This document shows, piece by piece, positions 48,001 through 54,000 of a stretch of 54,047 nt of DNA. Made by a program: the position numbers. This stretch comes from Candidatus Zixiibacteriota bacterium (GTDB taxonomy: Bacteria; Zixibacteria; MSB-5A5; GN15; JAAZOE01): the NCBI GenBank assembly GCA_043819555.1, contig JBDREQ010000078.1, forward strand, positions 1 to 54,047. The letters are read 5' to 3'. Position 1 is the first letter of the stretch. Every line of letters begins with the position of its first letter.

Positions 48001-51000
48001 TGGAGCTGTCACAACCGATCTGCCATTAGTAATCGATAAACCTATTAATTTCGGCGTTCAGGATTTTTGCGACCAATGCAATAGATGCGCTATAAATTGC
48101 CCTTCGGCAGCGATTCCCGAAGGCGGTCCGGAAAATGTTCGCGGAGTTCAAAAATGGCAACTAAACATTGAAGCCTGCTTTAAATACTGGTGTTCCCGTG
48201 GCACCGATTGTGGCCTGTGTATGAAAGTGTGCCCCTATTCTCACCCCCCCTCATTGATACACAATCTTGTCCGGATTGGCATTAGAAACTCTGCTATCGC
48301 CCGCCGAATTTCTGCATACGGTGAGGATTTGTTCTACGGTAAAAAAATTCCTACTAAGCTAACGGTTTTTGATGATTAGTATTATTCAAAATAACCAATA
48401 CAAAGGCAATTATTAAGCAGAGGAGATATTCGTGAAACAAACTATCATTCAAGTCGATTCATTCACCGAAAAACCCTTCGCGGGAAACCCTGCCGGCGTT
48501 TGCCTACTCGATGGTCCGGCTGAAGAAGGCTGGATGCAATCGGTAGCCAATGAGATGAATCTATCCGAAACCGCTTTTCTCTACAAAAAGGGAGACGATT
48601 ATAATCTGCGTTGGTTTACTCCCGCTATCGAAGTTAAAATGTGCGGACATGCCACCCTGGCGGCGGCATATGTTTTATTCAATGATAATCATGTCTCTTT
48701 CGACAGGCGAATCACGTTTCATACGTTAAGCGGACAGCTCTACGCCTCGCTCAACGGTGAGTGGATTGAACTGAATTTCCCGGTCAGAATCTCCAAAGAA
48801 GAACCTGTTCCGGTTGGTTTCGAAGAAGCATTGGGATTCAAACCTTCATATTTCGCCGAAGCCGGTGAAGATTGTCTGGCCGTATGCGATTCCGAAGAGA
48901 CAATTCGAAACCTCTCCCCGAATATTTCGGCAATAGAAAAACTTTCCATTCGCGGACTTATTGTCACCGCCCGAGGCAGTGGCGAATATGACTTCATATC
49001 CCGCTTTTTCGCACCTGCGGTAGGAATTCCGGAAGACCCGGTTACCGGTTCGGCTCATTGTACCCTGGCTCCTTATTGGATGAATGTATTGGGGAAAAAG
49101 GAAATGATTGGTTATCAGGCCTCGCCTCGTGGAGGCGCGGTTCGCGTCCGGGTAGAAGACGACCGTGTAGTTTTGGCAGGCAAGGCTGTTATTGTTATCA
49201 GAGGCGAGCTATATACCTGACATACTTATGAAATACTCAATAAGAGTACCGTCATGGCTATGGGAATTTTAAGTACATCGATAACAACTGTTTAGATTGC
49301 CCGCTGCAAAATCATTCAATTAGGTTATGCAAAGGCAATAATTAACCGATTAGTTCTTTCACTTTCTTAAGAAGCGCATCCCGGTCAACCGGTTTATCAA
49401 AATAACCCTGCGGCGGATTTACTTTTTTGGAACGCTCCAAAAAACGCTTAAAATCACTGGAAACTCCGGTTATCATGATGACCGGAATATTTGCCGTTGC
49501 CGGCGTTTCCTGCAGGTTTCTTATGGCCTTGATTCCGGATTCATTATCCATACTTATATCGAGCGTGATAAGTGAAACATTTTCGGTTTTGGCCAGTTCG
49601 AAACCTTTTTGCCCGTCTTCGGCCGTAATGGTATCGTAATCGTTATCTTCAAAATAGGCAATCAGCAAATCTCTCTGATCGGCTTCATCCTCAATAATCA
49701 GAATTTTCTTTTTCTCCGACATTTCAATATCCTCCCAGATATCTATTATACACTATATCACGCCATCAATCAATATCTTTGTACTGTTTTTAAGGTTGGT
49801 CAAAATTTAAGAGTTTAGTACATTAGTTTTCATCAGGTTTATCGCTCGCGGCAGATTCGCTATGTTCCCGAGGCATGGCAATTGAGATTTTTGTGCCCAC
49901 CCCCGGCTCCGATTTTATCTCGATTTTACTTCCATGAGATTGGGCGATTTTATGGGCAATAAAGAGTCCCAATCCGGTTCCCCCCGAGCCTTTGGATGAA
50001 AAAAACAGCGTAAAAGCCTTATCGCGAGTTTCCTGATCCATACCAATACCGTTATCGGAAATCTCAAATCCGATTTGTTCAGAGTCGCCTTTTATGATGA
50101 TCCTTACTTCATGATTCTCTTTTTGTTTATCCATCCGGCAGGCGTCAAATGAATTATCCACCAGATTTATAAGCATTGAGCGAATGGCCTTGTGGTCGGC
50201 TTTCAATAAATTATTATCAAGATCAACTTCTTTGGAAAAATCGATTTTCAGGCTCTCGGCTTTGGGCTTCATAACCGAATAAATCTCATCGATAACTTCA
50301 CCGACATTTAGATTTATCCACTCGGGTTCGCGATCCTTGGCATAATACAAAATATCCAGTACGGTGCTGCGTATGCGGTCGACGTTGCGCAACACCATCT
50401 CCCAACCTTTATCTATTCGGCCTCGATCTTCTTTCTGCATGCCGGTATTGACCAAATAAATTCCGCCGTCCATACCGTTGAGCAATCCTTTAAGATCGTG
50501 AGAAATAGTGCTGATTATCATCCCGACCGAAGAGAGCTTGGTTTGCAGCTCCCGAATCTGTGTGATATCGGTGGACATCTCGATAACGTTTTCAATATCG
50601 CCATCATCATTATAAATAGGCGCCGTCATTACCATAACATTCATTTGCCTGCCGTCGCGGGCGACAACTACCTCTTCATGAAGCTGAACTTCGCCGCTAT
50701 CGAATGTCTTAAGAACAGCACAGGGATGACAGGCTTTATCCCGATGCTTGTAAACCTCATAACATTTACAGCCATAAAAAGTACCGAATGCTTCACGATG
50801 CAGGCGATTGGCTTCAACGATGCGAAGGTTTCGATCCTGTATGGATATAAAACAGGGGACTTCCTCAAAAAGCAGGCGGTATTTTTCCTGACTGTTTTTC
50901 AGTTGTTTATGAAGCATTTTTATATCGGTGATATTGGTTGACATTTCCATCACTGAAGTAATTTTGCCCTCAGCATCATGTATGGGGGTAGTGTAAACAA

Positions 51001-54000
51001 TTACAGAGACCTTCCGGCCGTCAAGGGTCTTTACCAATTCCTCGCTGCGGTGCCGGTTGCCATCCAGAAATGTTCTCTCAACCGGACAGTCCTCGCATTT
51101 TTCCGGACGTTTCTTATAAATCTGATAGCAATAACGACCCTCATAATCGCCAAAATTCTTAACGAAGTTTTCATTGGCTTCAACAATTTTAAAATTGCGA
51201 TCCTGAATCGTGAGATAGCAGGGCATCGCCTTAAAATAGGTCTTATACAGATTATCCAAACCAACTTCTCGATTCCAAGGGCCGTTATAACCGATTATCT
51301 ATTTGTGCACAGCATCTAATATCTTACGAATATTAAAGAGCAGAGCCTCCTCCGTAATCGGTTTGTCAACATAACCATCCGGCGGGTTCACTGTTCGTTC
51401 GTAAATCAAACGACGCAATTCCGGTTTACCGGTAATAATGCAAATCTTTATGCCCGCTAATTCAGGATCTTTGCGAATCGATTCAAAAACATCAGAACCT
51501 GATTGCCCGGGCATACTCAAATCCAATGTAATCAAATCAGGCTTTTCACGACGTGCTGTCTCAAGCGCTTCTTCACCGGTATAAGCCTTTATTACTTCGG
51601 CACCGTTATCTTCAAGGAGCGTTGATGCAAATGTAACAAAATCCGGCTCGTCGTCAACAACAAGAATCGTAAATCCGGCCAGTTTTCCAGTGGCAACCAC
51701 TTCTTCCGGAGGCAAAACAACTGGCTCTTCAACTTTTTCGATCACCAGAGCATTGGCCACCAGATTAACCAGCTGGGTGACTTTCATATCAAGTTTGTAA
51801 TGCTTGATACAATCAGCCAATCCATCAACGCAGTTGTGACACGAAGTAACGACGTACTTAGCTCCAGTTGCCGCCATTTGTTCAGCCTTGATCTTAGCCG
51901 ATTTCAAACGCCTTGGGGTATATTCTGACATTGACATTGCCCCGCCGCCGCCGGTACAACAATAATTTTCAGCCCGGTTAGGATGCATTTCCCGGAAATC
52001 CTCGCAGACCAGATTCAGAAGTTCGCGAGGTTCTTCAAACAACCCGCAGCTTCTGGCATTATTGCACGAATCATGAAAAGTCACCGGTCCGGGATTTTTA
52101 GATTTATCGACTTTGATTTTACCCTCTTTTATATATCTCAGCATAGTTAATACCGAGCTTTCCATTACATAATTAACATCGCGTTTGGCCCAATTGGGGC
52201 CTTCGCATCGTGTCGATCGATAACCATGACCGCATTCTGAAATTACCAGCTTCTTCCCCTCAAGTTCTTCGACCTTTTCATAAAGGCGTCGGGCGACGGC
52301 TCCGCCCAAATCATCATCGCCAGAAAAAAGACCGAAGTTAGTCATATCCCAGCCATCTGACGGCATTGTCCAGTTTTCACCGGCCTCATTGAATATAAGA
52401 GCGGCATCGCTAATTGTGCGCGGATCATATTTGACTTCACGAGGATTAATTGAGTAAACAACATCAGCGTTCTTTTTATCAATCGGAATTCCGGGGTAAG
52501 ATTCGCCGTGTTCCACTTGCAACTCTTCGGTCAGCCATTCCAGAGTATCAATATAATCCTCTTTGAGGACCCCCATCTGATTGCCCAGTTCCCATTGGTC
52601 TTTACTTACTACGGCTACGCCCTCAGGCATAATCCCGACTGACACCAATAACCCTCGAGCCATACGGTTGAACGTAGCGTAATCGACGCCCATGGGACAA
52701 TTAATAGTGCACCGCCGGCAATTGGTGCATTTACCAAAAACAGTATCCTTTAGCTCTTCCAAATCATCATCAGTGTAAACCGATTTAGCGTGGGCCCACC
52801 AAGGCACTACCCGCCCGGTCCAATCAAAATGTCTCTTAAATAATGAACGAATTTTATCGGCTTTATAAGCGGGAGCATAAGTGGGATCGCCGGGATTGGC
52901 CAGAACATAATGGCAGGCGTCTGTGCAATTACCGCAATGAACGCATGCGACCAGCGAACTGACTATCTGACGATTGAGTTTCTTGCCCATTCGCTCCAAA
53001 ACCTTTTGCGCATTGTGTGATCTATTTTTATCGGACATATCAATCTCCATTTTTCAATATCAAAAAATAATCTACTTTACTCCTTGCTTATGAAGGATGC
53101 TCCATCGGATATACTCCCCGACGGCCCAGGGTTTTGCCAAGATAGTAGCGAGTAAACGGATAATACAGATAATGCGAAATCTTGGAAAAGGGAACATAAA
53201 CCAGGAAAAATGCGGTCTGGTAAAAGTAAATCATCATCAAAGTTTCGCCGCCTGTAATATTATTGGGTACGGCCAAAAAGGCAAATGCAAACCAGACCGT
53301 TAAAAACCACAGCGAAAAATGATCATCCGGAGATGAAATGGCCCGCATGTAATTGCTTCCAAGTCGCCGAATAATCCTCATTAATCCCACGATAAATGCC
53401 GCTCCGATAATTGTTTGAATTGCGGGAACAACTCTCGCAATGGTCAAAATATTCGGTAAATACGGAATAATAAACGACAGCATGATAGCTGCCGTAACAC
53501 CCAGGTGGAAAATAACAAATTGAAAATATAAAAAGAGCTTGGTGCGTGTACTTTCCATCGCCCATGGCATGGCAACGTTGGCCCATGAGTATATTATACT
53601 CTTGCGCGGCTTTAACATGCCAACACCGGTCGGCGCCTGCCGCTCTTTACCCGCCATGAAACGGGTCAGCCATATTAGCCGTGTAATATAAACCAGCGCC
53701 ATGAAGACCAGTGCTATTTCCTGCAGGGTATGCTCGGCAAAATGTAATTGACTGCTCATATTGATTCCCTACCCTCCTATCTTCTTAAACTGACTCTGGA
53801 ACGCCAGATATTCACGGTTATCATTGGCGCAAACAACTATATCTTTGATTCTTGGATTATTCGATAAATATTCTTTTATCGTCTTAAGAGTTATCTCAAC
53901 ACTGACATCTAGAGGAACGCCATAAAATCCCGCTCCCATTGGAGGAAAAGCAATGCTTTTTATCCCTTTTTCTTCCGCGGCATGGAGAGTGTTGGCAATC

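Follow-up and report, generated by a model that had tools for sequence, protein, structure and literature searches.

A receiver domain fused to a DsrK-like iron-sulfur protein in a candidate phosphorylation-gated redox cassette

Why would the iron-sulfur subunit of a respiratory-type membrane enzyme end in a phospho-acceptor domain and be encoded next to a histidine kinase? The question is raised by a 54,047-nucleotide stretch of DNA (the window) from Candidatus Zixiibacteriota bacterium (assembly GCA_043819555.1, contig JBDREQ010000078.1), an organism that, like its relatives, carries Zixibacteria labels. We give about an even chance to the hypothesis that this locus encodes an accessory quinone-linked reductase of the DsrMK type whose activity is gated by phosphorylation.

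The cassette and its fusion protein

Positions 49342 to 53759 of the window hold four ORFs, all on the minus strand, for a membrane protein, the fusion, a kinase and a lone receiver, each found where the genome-wide survey's note had placed it. The span given there, 49342..53759, is right for these four genes but too narrow for the cassette, which within 49342..54047 runs on the minus strand from a Macro-domain gene through a NarI-type probable cytochrome b, the CCG-receiver fusion and a PAS-PAS kinase to the lone receiver, with an HTH gene further upstream in most Zixibacteria loci. The Macro-domain gene is cut by the contig end; its 3' part (53769..54047, minus strand, 92 codons; Pfam Macro 1.8e-10) is separated by 9 nt from the membrane gene that follows it, and a full-length ortholog in L037 encodes 177 aa (Macro 2.5e-23). 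It is the cassette's most faithful neighbour, being present upstream of the membrane gene in 19/20 and 63/63 fused loci and in 4/5 receiver-less loci. The fused loci examined have no cassette genes for cytochrome c or periplasmic subunits.

The fusion gene (51299..53050, minus strand), assigned with Pfam and NCBIfam, codes for 583 aa from the first ATG (53050); counting from the second ATG (53038) gives the 579-aa form of the survey's note, and residue numbers used here are those of the note plus four. The database copy, P0001, has 579 aa. Residues 1-440 (51731..53050) form the catalytic module, with Pfam hits to Fer4_8 at 34-122 (3e-10) and CCG at 323-407 (1.2e-11). It displays two ferredoxin-type [4Fe-4S] motifs, E-C273-G-H275 and one five-cysteine CCG motif (C329...C364-C365...C404-x2-C407), features which support the DsrK/HdrD-family module announced by the survey. 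The cofactor cysteines and the E-C-G-H catalytic motif are invariant in 84/84 distinct fusions, and with 75-82% versus 74-86% in the same five genomes the catalytic part matches DsrK in conservation.

NCBIfam ranks HmcF first (327 bits), then TmcB (305) and DsrK (258), in agreement with the best Swiss-Prot match, DVU_0531, listed earlier. All three scores lie below the equivalog cut-offs, so the substrate may differ from those of these families. CCG proteins as a group act on varied substrates. The fusion is not DsrK itself: it reaches 258 bits where the DsrK cut-off is 400, and a true dsrMKJOP lies elsewhere in the genome (contig C3, DsrK 735 bits). Judged by its sequence, the fusion is a third DsrK paralog in a separate clade, nearest to HmcF/TmcB by score; the paralogs signalled by the survey on contigs C27 and C3 do exist and both are devoid of a receiver. 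The catalytic module is modelled with a pLDDT of 93.2 and a LutA model is among its best structure matches, the top solved match being EtfD (9ojn).

A flexible linker (residues 441-460; 51671..51730) of low mean column identity, 0.27-0.31 versus 0.78-0.85 for the catalytic parts, connects this module to the receiver (residues 461-583 and stop codon; 51299..51670). The linker measures 15-47 residues across 84 fusions and has pLDDT below 50 at 446-451. The receiver gives a strong Pfam hit to Response_reg at 462-571 (7.3e-19; 68.4 bits for a cut-off of 30.2) and folds like DivK, RR468 and CheY (rmsd 1.5-2.0 Å). Its acceptor residues, left unchecked by the survey, are intact: D466, D467, the acceptor D510 and K563 are conserved in 84/84 distinct fusions, while position 540 is T in 79 and S in 5. 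By these residues the receiver is canonical. Its pose against the catalytic module is left unfixed by the monomer model (pTM 0.74, linker pLDDT below 50).

A probable membrane anchor and an association with dsr genes

The gene upstream of the fusion (53088..53759, minus strand) encodes a five-helix membrane protein of 223 aa without any Pfam match. It aligns end to end with NCBIfam TmcC (1.6e-10) and HmcE (2.4e-8), both far below their cut-offs. Its structural model (pLDDT 80.2) is closest to NarI (Z 11.3, rmsd 6.0, 167 aligned) and to the membrane part of EtfD (Z 11.0, rmsd 5.0, 209 aligned), the following match having Z 6.8; the best 8 Foldseek matches are all NarI (E 2.8e-3 to 1.3e-2). Since only two histidines, H85 and H196, are invariant (26 sequences), the anchor probably binds at most one haem, unlike the two-haem DsrM. 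The ligands of NarI's distal haem, which NarI's quinol site adjoins, are absent, so that quinol oxidation is not assured. Relatives with NarI fused into one chain exist (P0164).

The complex of anchor and fusion is modelled with an ipSAE of 0.88 (runs 0.87, 0.88, 0.88), against 0.00 for the best of three controls; the mark used is reached by 116/157 solved complexes and 2/215 mismatched pairs. The runs have at least 91% of contacts in common and a partner pLDDT of at least 87. In the predicted interface, the cytoplasmic loops and H196 of the anchor meet the first cluster motif of the fusion. Resemblance to the solved NarGHI or EtfD may underlie the outcome of the complex modelling. The DsrM/NarI-like character guessed by the survey thus holds for the NarI-type fold, with the TmcC/HmcE matches and the complex model on its side, but the histidine pair departs from DsrM.

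The host genome codes for dsrAB, dsrMKJOP, dsrC, aprA and sat, with dsrA, aprA and sat above their cut-offs; the survey's "sulfate reducer" is justified as genomic potential. The survey had counted the fusion in 8/30 other genomes of the order. It is not special to that order: genomes with the labels of eight or more phyla contain the cassette at 61-81% identity, and it tracks dsrAB. In a 151-genome sample of the phylum, dsrA is present in 27/27 fusion-bearing genomes and the fusion in 0/94 genomes without a dsrA match, counts drawn from related genomes and hence not independent. Carriers from other labelled phyla have dsrA in 38 of 40 cases; it was not seen in the other two, in genomes of uncertain completeness. 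The cassette is missing from 30 of the 57 dsrA genomes in the phylum sample, showing that it is dispensable for the pathway. In G068, G130, G030 and G028 the cassette and dsrA share a contig, 7-23 kb apart, while in the host genome cassette and dsr cluster are on different contigs. Orthologs without receiver (69-79% identity) retain the membrane gene in 5/5 loci. Two of them, in L097 and L134 (labelled Terracidiphilus, 71% identity), precede dsrAB by about 1.1 kb in the same orientation, with the membrane partner alongside; both genomes encode a canonical DsrK besides.

We consider it quite unlikely that the cassette encodes a quinone-linked oxidoreductase acting on a substrate foreign to the Dsr pathway and is associated with dsrAB through shared ecology and joint horizontal transfer. 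Candidate substrates would then be a low-molecular-weight disulfide or persulfide, an ETF- or lactate-type donor (EtfD, LutA), or a nucleotide-linked thiol handled with the Macro protein. The best solved match to EtfD (E 2.4e-17) together with the LutA model, the scores below the DsrK, HmcF and TmcB cut-offs, the sister two-gene relatives (~40% identity) of families without dsrA (f5 0/13, f16 0/8), the nucleotide ligand hinted at by the near-universal Macro partner, and a gene tree cutting across phylum labels (39 label changes for a minimum of 13) are compatible with such a role. However, identity to EtfD is just 19%, and E-C-G-H with a single CCG is the signature described for DsrK-related proteins. 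The pervasive presence of dsrA in carriers and the two orthologs directly upstream of dsrAB also argue for a Dsr substrate, as does the closest non-receiver relative, which bears a DsrC-like domain, though without DsrC's cysteines.

Kinase, receivers and a putative phospho-switch

The survey had reported a PAS kinase and a lone receiver downstream of the fusion. Pfam confirms their domains, and the arrangement is conserved. The kinase (49823..51259, minus strand, 478 aa) is a soluble protein with two PAS domains (PAS_9, PAS_4), both with Cys-rich motifs, and HATPase_c; it aligns to ThkA (3a0r) over 233-450. Its H-box histidine, H254, and C44, C55, C58, H70, C136, C166, C177 and C180 are conserved in 21/21 sequences, H194 in 20/21. 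The gene follows the fusion in 20/20 and 66/67 fused loci and in 0/4 receiver-less loci. The single-domain receiver (49342..49722, minus strand, 126 aa; Response_reg 1.8e-19) has D12, D55, T85 and K110 conserved in 14/14 sequences; among the genome's proteins it matches the fused receiver best (36% identity). Of the fused loci, 14/20 and 59/65 have a receiver gene downstream. Pfam detects no DNA-binding domain on either receiver of the window. In 17/20 Zixibacteria loci a gene further upstream encodes an HTH, an eight-cysteine segment and a degenerate receiver.

The receiver might serve for docking or assembly, tethering the enzyme to the kinase or driving dimerisation or localisation with little catalytic effect; alternatively, the Cys-rich PAS domains of the kinase could be the substrate of the CCG site. 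The long variable tether, and a monomer model in which the receiver docks nowhere with confidence, fit a domain acting on other proteins, and the invariant PAS cysteines and the joint gain and loss of kinase and receiver are in keeping with these ideas. We hold them very unlikely, for all residues of phosphorylation chemistry are invariant in the 84 fusions and pure docking would not need them.

The survey had left a choice between an enzyme throttled by phosphorylation and a redox sensor; neither is demonstrated. As a sensor, the cytochrome b/CCG module would be the signalling input. Its redox or substrate-bound state (quinone pool, DsrC pool) would tune how readily the tethered receiver takes up or drains phosphate from the kinase, and this in turn would set how far the lone receiver and, in loci that have it, the HTH-receiver protein are phosphorylated. 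One kinase with up to three receiver-type proteins is arranged like branched phosphorelays that contain phosphate sinks, the lone receiver is more closely related to the fused one than any other protein of the genome, and the HTH protein would supply a transcriptional output. We nevertheless judge a dedicated sensor unlikely. The HTH protein's receiver has no acidic pair, its gene occurs in only 15/57 fused loci outside the phylum sample and is shortened in the same-genus genome G068, the kinase's own PAS domains are plausible inputs, and the catalytic module is conserved as well as DsrK. The tree shows five changes of receiver state inside a clade with SH-aLRT 100, a history that fits one gain and four losses. 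Orthologs without kinase and receiver keep an intact enzyme, which thus has a role of its own, and the location of some of them directly upstream of dsrAB favours the throttled enzyme.

We thus return to the phosphorylation-gated reductase, which would be an accessory redox enzyme of dissimilatory sulfite/sulfate metabolism, bound to the membrane, made of two subunits of the DsrMK/HmcEF/TmcBC type and under direct two-component control. The NarI-like anchor would carry a single b haem close to its cytoplasmic face, with H85 and H196 as ligands, and menaquinol (in reverse, menaquinone) would exchange electrons with this haem. The two [4Fe-4S] clusters would then conduct the electrons to one non-cubane cluster and Cys273/His275, the site at which a sulfur-carrier substrate would be reduced or oxidised. 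The likeliest such substrate is a DsrC-bound trisulfide, persulfide or disulfide. The adjacent soluble kinase may sense a cytoplasmic redox, metal or sulfur signal via its Cys-rich PAS domains and phosphorylate D510 on the tethered receiver, altering enzyme activity, for example by shielding or exposing the substrate face or through a shift in oligomeric state. The lone receiver could compete for the same phosphoryl groups or relay the signal. On an iron-sulfur subunit of the type that completes sulfite respiration, a built-in phospho-switch with its own sensor kinase and an anchor suggests signalling directly on electron flow, not just on gene expression. The literature search returned no paper on a receiver fused to the iron-sulfur subunit of a respiratory-type membrane complex or on this cassette, in line with the survey's suggestion that a direct link between DsrMK-type electron transfer and two-component signalling would be new.

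Relation to known systems

In PMC10861901 and bioRxiv 10.64898/2026.08.25.746951, DsrMK of DsrMKJOP is presented as a menaquinol:DsrC-trisulfide oxidoreductase, and DsrK, HmcF and TmcB as combining a pair of ferredoxin motifs with one CCG motif and E-C-G-H. Relative to these descriptions the cassette shares with DsrMK a NarI-type membrane subunit, a cytoplasmic subunit with two [4Fe-4S] motifs and a single CCG, a conserved Cys that is not a cluster ligand and is followed two positions later by His, and occurrence in dsrAB genomes. It differs in the last CCG ligand, a Cys where many DsrKs have Asp, in the two invariant histidines of the anchor, where two His/His haems need four, and in the added receiver, kinase and Macro partner. 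According to Hausmann et al. 2018 (PMC6018796, citing Pereira et al. 2011), dsrM2/dsrK2 paralogs sit upstream of dsrAB. The receiver-less orthologs L097 and L134 with their membrane partner match that description and are probably the published dsrK2, an assignment by description and not by sequence comparison; the description makes no mention of receiver, kinase or Macro gene, and the host cassette is not beside dsrAB.

The Hmc and Tmc complexes of Desulfovibrio provide the best family matches, HmcF/TmcB for the fusion and TmcC/HmcE for the anchor, although scores are far below equivalog cut-offs (327/750, 305/735, 40.8/240). Their operons are also linked to receiver-family proteins; presumably rrf1 follows hmcF and DVU0258-0260 precede tmcA. 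A preprint assigns DVU0262 of the tmc operon to a response-regulator family. The single CCG motif and T/GECGH found here are described for HmcF/TmcB in PMC10861901. The cassette, unlike Hmc and Tmc, has no cytochrome c or periplasmic subunit genes, and its receiver is fused, not just nearby.

Among solved structures, mycobacterial EtfD (9ojn) comes nearest to the catalytic module (phmmer 1.6e-14, Foldseek 2.4e-17) and, together with NarI, to the anchor. It differs as a single chain of 1042 residues devoted to fatty-acid oxidation, without a receiver. EtfD is an ETF:quinone enzyme.

Canonical receivers joined to non-DNA-binding domains occur in response regulators with enzymatic partner domains and as the C-terminal receivers of CheV/CheA-type proteins. 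The fusion resembles CheV in having its receiver at the C-terminus, but the partner domain here is the iron-sulfur subunit of a respiratory-type membrane complex.

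A receiver-fused iron-sulfur protein in a five-gene cassette

The minus strand carries five genes in tandem from position 49342 to 54047, where the contig ends. The outermost is a Macro-domain gene whose last 92 codons are present (53769-54047), the contig ending inside it. The gene of a hydrophobic, 223-residue membrane protein, the anchor (53088-53759), starts 9 nt downstream and is followed by the gene of the 583-residue fusion (51299-53050; translation from the next ATG, 53038, yields the 579-residue form of the database copy), of a 478-residue histidine kinase (49823-51259) and of a 126-residue lone receiver with a Response_reg domain (49342-49722). 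The genome-wide survey's note had read the fusion as a DsrK/HdrD-like iron-sulfur protein with a C-terminal receiver and its neighbour as a PAS histidine kinase. Both assignments hold: Pfam places Fer4_8 at residues 34-122, CCG at 323-407 and Response_reg at 462-571 of the fusion, a shift of four residues relative to the note, and finds two PAS domains and HATPase_c in the kinase. A promoter and terminator scan of 48900-54047 gave counts close to those of shuffled sequence. Next to the cassette, on the plus strand, are a gene for a reductive-dehalogenase-family protein with a hydrophobic N-terminal part (47039-48379; TIGR02486, 178.9 bits for a cut-off of 160.35) and, 3' of it, a PhzF-family isomerase gene (48432-49220), a synteny kept in a genome of the same genus.

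The catalytic module of the fusion (residues 1-440) has the features of DsrK-related proteins. These are described, in the accessible parts of PMC10861901 and of a 2026 preprint on the DsrMKJOP structure, as two canonical [4Fe-4S] sites, a single five-cysteine CCG motif (CXnCCGXnCX2C) binding one non-cubane cluster, and a non-ligating Cys strictly conserved in T/GECGH, with His two residues on. The non-cubane [4Fe-4S]3+ cluster of DsrK has a rhombic EPR signal (g about 2.02, 1.99 and 1.94; PMC10861901). All three features are present in the fusion. Its ferredoxin-type motifs, C36-x2-C39-x2-C42-x3-C46 and C108-x2-C111-x2-C114-x3-C118 (Pfam Fer4_8, 3e-10), keep all their cysteines across 84 distinct full-length fusions, bar one sequence gapped at 36 and 39. 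The CCG motif C329-x34-C364-C365-x38-C404-x2-C407, which reads CCT-GGGG in this genome's copy and lies in the one CCG domain recognised by Pfam, is kept in 84/84, as are E, C, G and H of the stretch S-E272-C273-G274-H275. The catalytic part is conserved about as strongly as DsrK, with values of 80, 82, 75, 77 and 79% versus 86, 79, 79, 74 and 76% for DsrK in the same five genomes.

NCBIfam models matching fusion residues 13-441 rank HmcF (NF045711, 327 bits) before TmcB (NF045724, 305) and DsrK (NF045796, 258), all below the whole-protein equivalog cut-offs of 750, 735 and 400 bits, respectively. The closest full-length relative lacking the receiver, library protein P0132 (549 residues, 43% identity), has in the receiver's place a C-terminal DsrC-like domain (PF04358, 1.8e-15) without the two C-terminal cysteines of functional DsrC.

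The fused receiver scores 68.4 bits against the CheY-like receiver family PF00072 (cut-off 30.2), with an rmsd of 1.5-2.0 A to solved receivers. D466, D467, the acceptor D510 and K563 are found in 84/84 fusions; residue 540 is T in 79 of them and S in the other 5. The equivalent residues of the lone receiver are kept in 14/14. For both receivers the best receiver family is the DivK-like DVU0259 (NF045717; 72.7 bits fused, 87.3 lone), each score lying under the cut-off of 160 bits. The linker joining module and receiver is the sole poorly conserved part of the fusion (identity 0.27, length 15-47 residues). Its pLDDT is below 50 in a model of the fusion with pTM 0.74, which leaves the position of the receiver open. 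A role of the receiver in docking could be imagined for such a tethered domain, yet with the acceptor present in every fusion we rate it as very improbable.

The H-box His254 of the kinase is present in 21/21 orthologs. Its two PAS domains share a repeated motif, C-[YF]-x-[IVL]-Y-K-x-R-x3-C-x2-C...H (residues 14-70 and 136-194). C44, C55, C58 and H70 of the first PAS and C136, C166, C177 and C180 of the second are invariant in 21/21, and H194 is found in 20/21. These invariant cysteines suggest a putative metal or iron-sulfur sensing site. No solved structure was matched by the sequence of this Cys-rich part.

The membrane anchor and its predicted complex with the catalytic module

Pfam assigns the anchor to none of its families at E up to 0.01, including Nitrate_red_gam (PF02665), a family matched by the membrane partners of a 537-residue DsrK-like paralog, and the anchor's sequence matches no PDB chain at E up to 10. 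It aligns end to end with the NCBIfam models of TmcC (1.6e-10) and HmcE (2.4e-8), far below their cut-offs. A model built from 26 sequences (pLDDT 80.2) points to a five-helix NarI fold. The eight top Foldseek hits of this model are NarI (E 2.8e-3 to 1.3e-2), and an aligner independent of Foldseek gives NarI 1q16_C (Z 11.3, rmsd 6.0, 167 aligned) and the membrane part of EtfD (Z 11.0, rmsd 5.0, 209 aligned) ahead of the next match at Z 6.8, values below about 13 being possibly generic for helical bundles. Library protein P0164, a relative of the catalytic module, carries a NarI domain in the same chain.

H85 and H196 are the only histidines invariant in the 26 anchors, together with R132, D146 and P190, and no conserved His occurs at the distal-haem positions of these sequences. 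The anchor thus would hold at most one bis-His haem. DsrM differs in this respect, having four histidines for two bis-His haems according to the available parts of PMC10861901 and PMC10504309, and a two-haem, DsrM-like anchor is ruled out.

Modelling of the anchor with fusion residues 1-445 gives an ipSAE of 0.88 (0.87, 0.88 and 0.88 in separate runs) versus 0.00 for the best of three controls; the mark that it passes is reached by 116/157 solved complexes and 2/215 mismatched pairs. The runs share at least 91% of contacts, with partner pLDDT of at least 87. This result may partly mirror likeness to NarGHI and EtfD, since both are solved. In the predicted interface the cytoplasmic loops and H196 of the anchor face the first cluster motif of the fusion, which would place H85 and H196 toward the cytoplasmic side.

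Distribution, gene order and history of the receiver

Full-length fusions are encoded in 26/151 genomes of the phylum sample, or 27/151 when counting one genome (G140) whose fusion is split over two contig ends. A dsrA match is found in 57 of the 151 genomes (55 above cut-off), comprising 27/27 fusion genomes; the fusion occurs in 0/94 genomes lacking a dsrA match and is absent from 30 genomes with dsrA, counts that are not independent because the genomes are related. A substrate of the enzyme outside the Dsr pathway, towards which EtfD points as closest solved structure, seems quite unlikely to us.

A lineage-specific origin of the fusion was suggested by the exhaustive 50%-identity library, in which P0123 (51% identity) is the only other fused representative and the nearest full-length relatives after it have no receiver. 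An invention specific to Zixibacteria is ruled out by a scan of one genome per species, which returned 121 relatives. The 80 loci kept, at 61-81% identity, include six identical to phylum-sample loci and carry submitters' labels, possibly imprecise, of Acidobacteriota (including Thermoanaerobaculia and Ca. Sulfomarinibacteraceae), Thermodesulfobacteriota/Deltaproteobacteria, Planctomycetota, Zixibacteria, Ignavibacteria, Myxococcota, Gemmatimonadota, Elusimicrobia, Nitrospirota and others. These multi-phylum fusions all fall inside a single 50%-identity cluster. In a selection of 40 scan genomes that covers the range of labels and contains each of the five receiver-less loci, dsrA is found in 38 at E up to 1e-30 (36 above cut-off) and was not found in G169 and G171. 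Four genomes (G068, G130, G030 and G028) have the fused cassette and dsrA on one contig, 7-23 kb apart; in the present genome the cassette is on contig C78 and the dsrAB/dsr cluster on contig C3.

Gene order is highly conserved among loci with enough flank to be counted. The membrane gene is upstream of the module at 20/20 phylum-sample loci, 64/65 fused loci of the scan and 5/5 receiver-less ones, and the Macro gene at 19/20, 63/63 and 4/5, respectively. Downstream, the kinase gene is present at 20/20, 66/67 and 0/4 loci of the same three groups, and a receiver gene further on at 14/20, 59/65 and 0/4, standing immediately after the kinase in 13 of the 14 phylum-sample cases. The sole exception for the membrane gene in the scan is a broken locus (L137) and the sole exception for the kinase is L133, labelled Elusimicrobia, where HTH-receiver-like genes take the kinase's place. 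One genome has two cassette copies (L087 and L089), one of them broken by frame breaks.

Of all neighbours of the module the Macro gene is the most constant, and it is absent beside two-gene relatives of about 40% identity. Its full-length orthologs are nearest to ADP-ribose-binding and O-acetyl-ADP-ribose deacetylase families of NCBIfam, below the cut-offs. Directly upstream of it, 17/20 Zixibacteria loci, all within L037-L056, have an HTH gene (e.g. L038:4420-5256, plus strand) whose product combines a DNA-binding domain of the HTH_17/excisionase type, a conserved domain holding about eight cysteines and a degenerate receiver that lost the acidic pair and kept the Asp at the acceptor position. 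The gene is shortened to 138 aa, without receiver, in a genome of the same genus (L037:4877-5293). It was not found in the present assembly, where the contig ends inside the Macro gene, and outside the phylum sample it accompanies 15/57 fused loci only. In L037 and L038 the sequences preceding the Macro and HTH genes contain no sigma-54 site, and counts there did not exceed chance.

In five scan loci (L097, L134, L127, L104 and L144) the ortholog lacks the receiver, the ORF ending at 430-451 aa with 69-79% identity to the fusion; the kinase count of 0/4 covers the first four, L144 having 46 nt of downstream sequence. L097 and L134 have the start of dsrA about 1.1 kb downstream, on the strand of the ortholog, and the gene of a canonical DsrK (721-723 bits) about 6 kb beyond it. 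In a maximum-likelihood tree of residues 20-440 (111 rows, quick search, LG+G4) the cassette proteins form one clade (SH-aLRT 100). Its sister clade consists of the proteins of about 40% identity, encoded in plain two-gene modules of a membrane and a CCG protein, without kinase or receiver in 10/10 loci and present in families lacking dsrA (f5, 0/13; f16, 0/8). The receiver state changes five times on the tree and is read as one probable gain followed by four losses (L144; L127; L104; L097 with L134), since the basal rows carry the receiver. The kinase is absent too in the assessable losses. Phylum labels are scattered, with 39 changes versus a minimum of 13, which would fit horizontal spread among dsr-bearing lineages.

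Adjacency at 66/67 fused loci, together with joint gain and loss, suggests that the fused receiver may be phosphorylated by its cognate kinase. Enzyme, anchor and Macro partner exist intact without the signalling parts, sometimes inside dsr operons, and receiver and kinase come and go together, layered on the enzyme. This pattern would favour a regulated enzyme over a dedicated sensor. A redox-sensor or phosphate-sink role of the cassette, which its second receiver might evoke, is accordingly viewed as unlikely.

A candidate regulated paralog beside the Dsr system

The present organism, whose relatives are labelled Zixibacteria, has the genes expected of a sulfate reducer: contig C3 encodes a true dsrMKJOP with dsrC (108506-108823) and a dsrN-like gene, all five Dsr subunits scoring above their cut-offs (DsrK at 735 bits), and dsrA, aprA and sat are each above cut-off. 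The fusion cannot, with a full dsrMKJOP on C3, be the organism's DsrK; it is a third, distinct DsrK-family paralog of the genome. Two flavoprotein genes are part of the C3 surroundings, one for a CoA-disulfide-reductase-like protein directly downstream of dsrP (101095-102816, minus strand; 343 bits, below the cut-off of 578.8) and one for a PRK12771-type NAD(P)-binding iron-sulfur protein between the dsrN-like gene and dsrC.

A second DsrMK-like pair is encoded on contig C27 (41022-44247), where a NarI-family protein of 310-311 aa accompanies the 537-residue DsrK-like paralog (334 bits for the DsrK cut-off of 400) and an Rrf2 regulator precedes the pair. Such pairs are found elsewhere (L048:9601-12534, L053:2028-5112, L067 and L068), with a lone receiver gene after the pair in these four loci, and adjoin the fusion cassette in two genomes (G030 and G069). 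The association of DsrMK with a receiver thus also exists as separate genes.

We favour, with even confidence, the hypothesis that the cassette is an accessory quinone-linked reductase of the DsrMK type whose activity is gated by phosphorylation; haem, quinone link and substrate are putative, as are phosphotransfer and what phosphorylation does to the enzyme. D510 would be phosphorylated by the adjacent Cys-rich PAS kinase and would thereby set the activity of an enzyme acting most likely on DsrC-bound sulfur, while the lone receiver could be a competing phosphate acceptor or a relay. A bolder version of this regulated-enzyme hypothesis, rather improbable in our estimate, sees in the cassette a post-translational valve on the DsrC cycle. 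The kinase would read cytoplasmic redox or sulfur chemistry through its Cys/metal-loaded PAS domains and phosphorylate the tethered receiver, which would open or close a second path, electroneutral and with one haem, linking the quinone pool to DsrC-bound sulfur. Organisms with dsrD and type-2 dsrL might in this way switch within seconds among sulfite reduction, disproportionation and sulfur oxidation, and the linked Macro protein may add a nucleotide input to the complex, with an ADP-ribose-type or other adenine-nucleotide ligand.

The fusion is real and conserved, and makes a DsrK-family subunit the partner domain of a response regulator; its mechanism is inferred. Full-text searches, which reached neither subscription journals nor supplements, returned no mention of a receiver fused to a DsrK, HdrD or CCG protein, and none was found in the available parts of PMC10591310, PMC10504309 and PMC8477390. 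If the valve reading is true, this would be the first respiratory iron-sulfur subunit serving as response-regulator output domain. Should phosphorylation gate the enzyme, two-component signalling would have a respiratory complex as its direct target, a form of control undescribed for Dsr metabolism, in a system as small as two subunits and a kinase. This bears on how the supply of electrons to the final step of sulfite respiration is controlled and on the roles of the DsrK paralogs (dsrM2K2, Hmc, Tmc), one clade of which combines an intact phospho-receiver with a dedicated kinase and a Macro partner. The clade follows dsrAB in recently recognised non-classical sulfite/sulfate reducers, labelled Zixibacteria, Acidobacteriota, Planctomycetota, Ignavibacteria, Gemmatimonadota and others.

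Among known systems, HmcF, TmcB and DsrK have the same catalytic signature as the fusion, which fails on score to belong to any of the three equivalogs. For Hmc and Tmc gene context also differs: these complexes include a periplasmic multihaem cytochrome c and other subunits that are not encoded at the fusion loci themselves, where the neighbours are the Macro gene upstream and the kinase downstream (19-20/20 phylum-sample and 63-66/63-67 scan loci). Regulatory genes accompany these systems as well, rrf1 presumably lying after hmcF. The tmc operon contains DVU0262, a protein of the response-regulator family, according to the accessible part of a preprint. In the available text of Hausmann et al. 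(2018, PMC6018796), "dsrMK-paralogs (dsrM2, dsrK2) upstream of dsrAB" are stated to be not uncommon. The position directly upstream of dsrAB is not that of the cassette in the present genome; it is matched by the receiver-less orthologs of L097 and L134, and because these fit that description of gene position, the name dsrM2K2 probably refers to the cassette clade.
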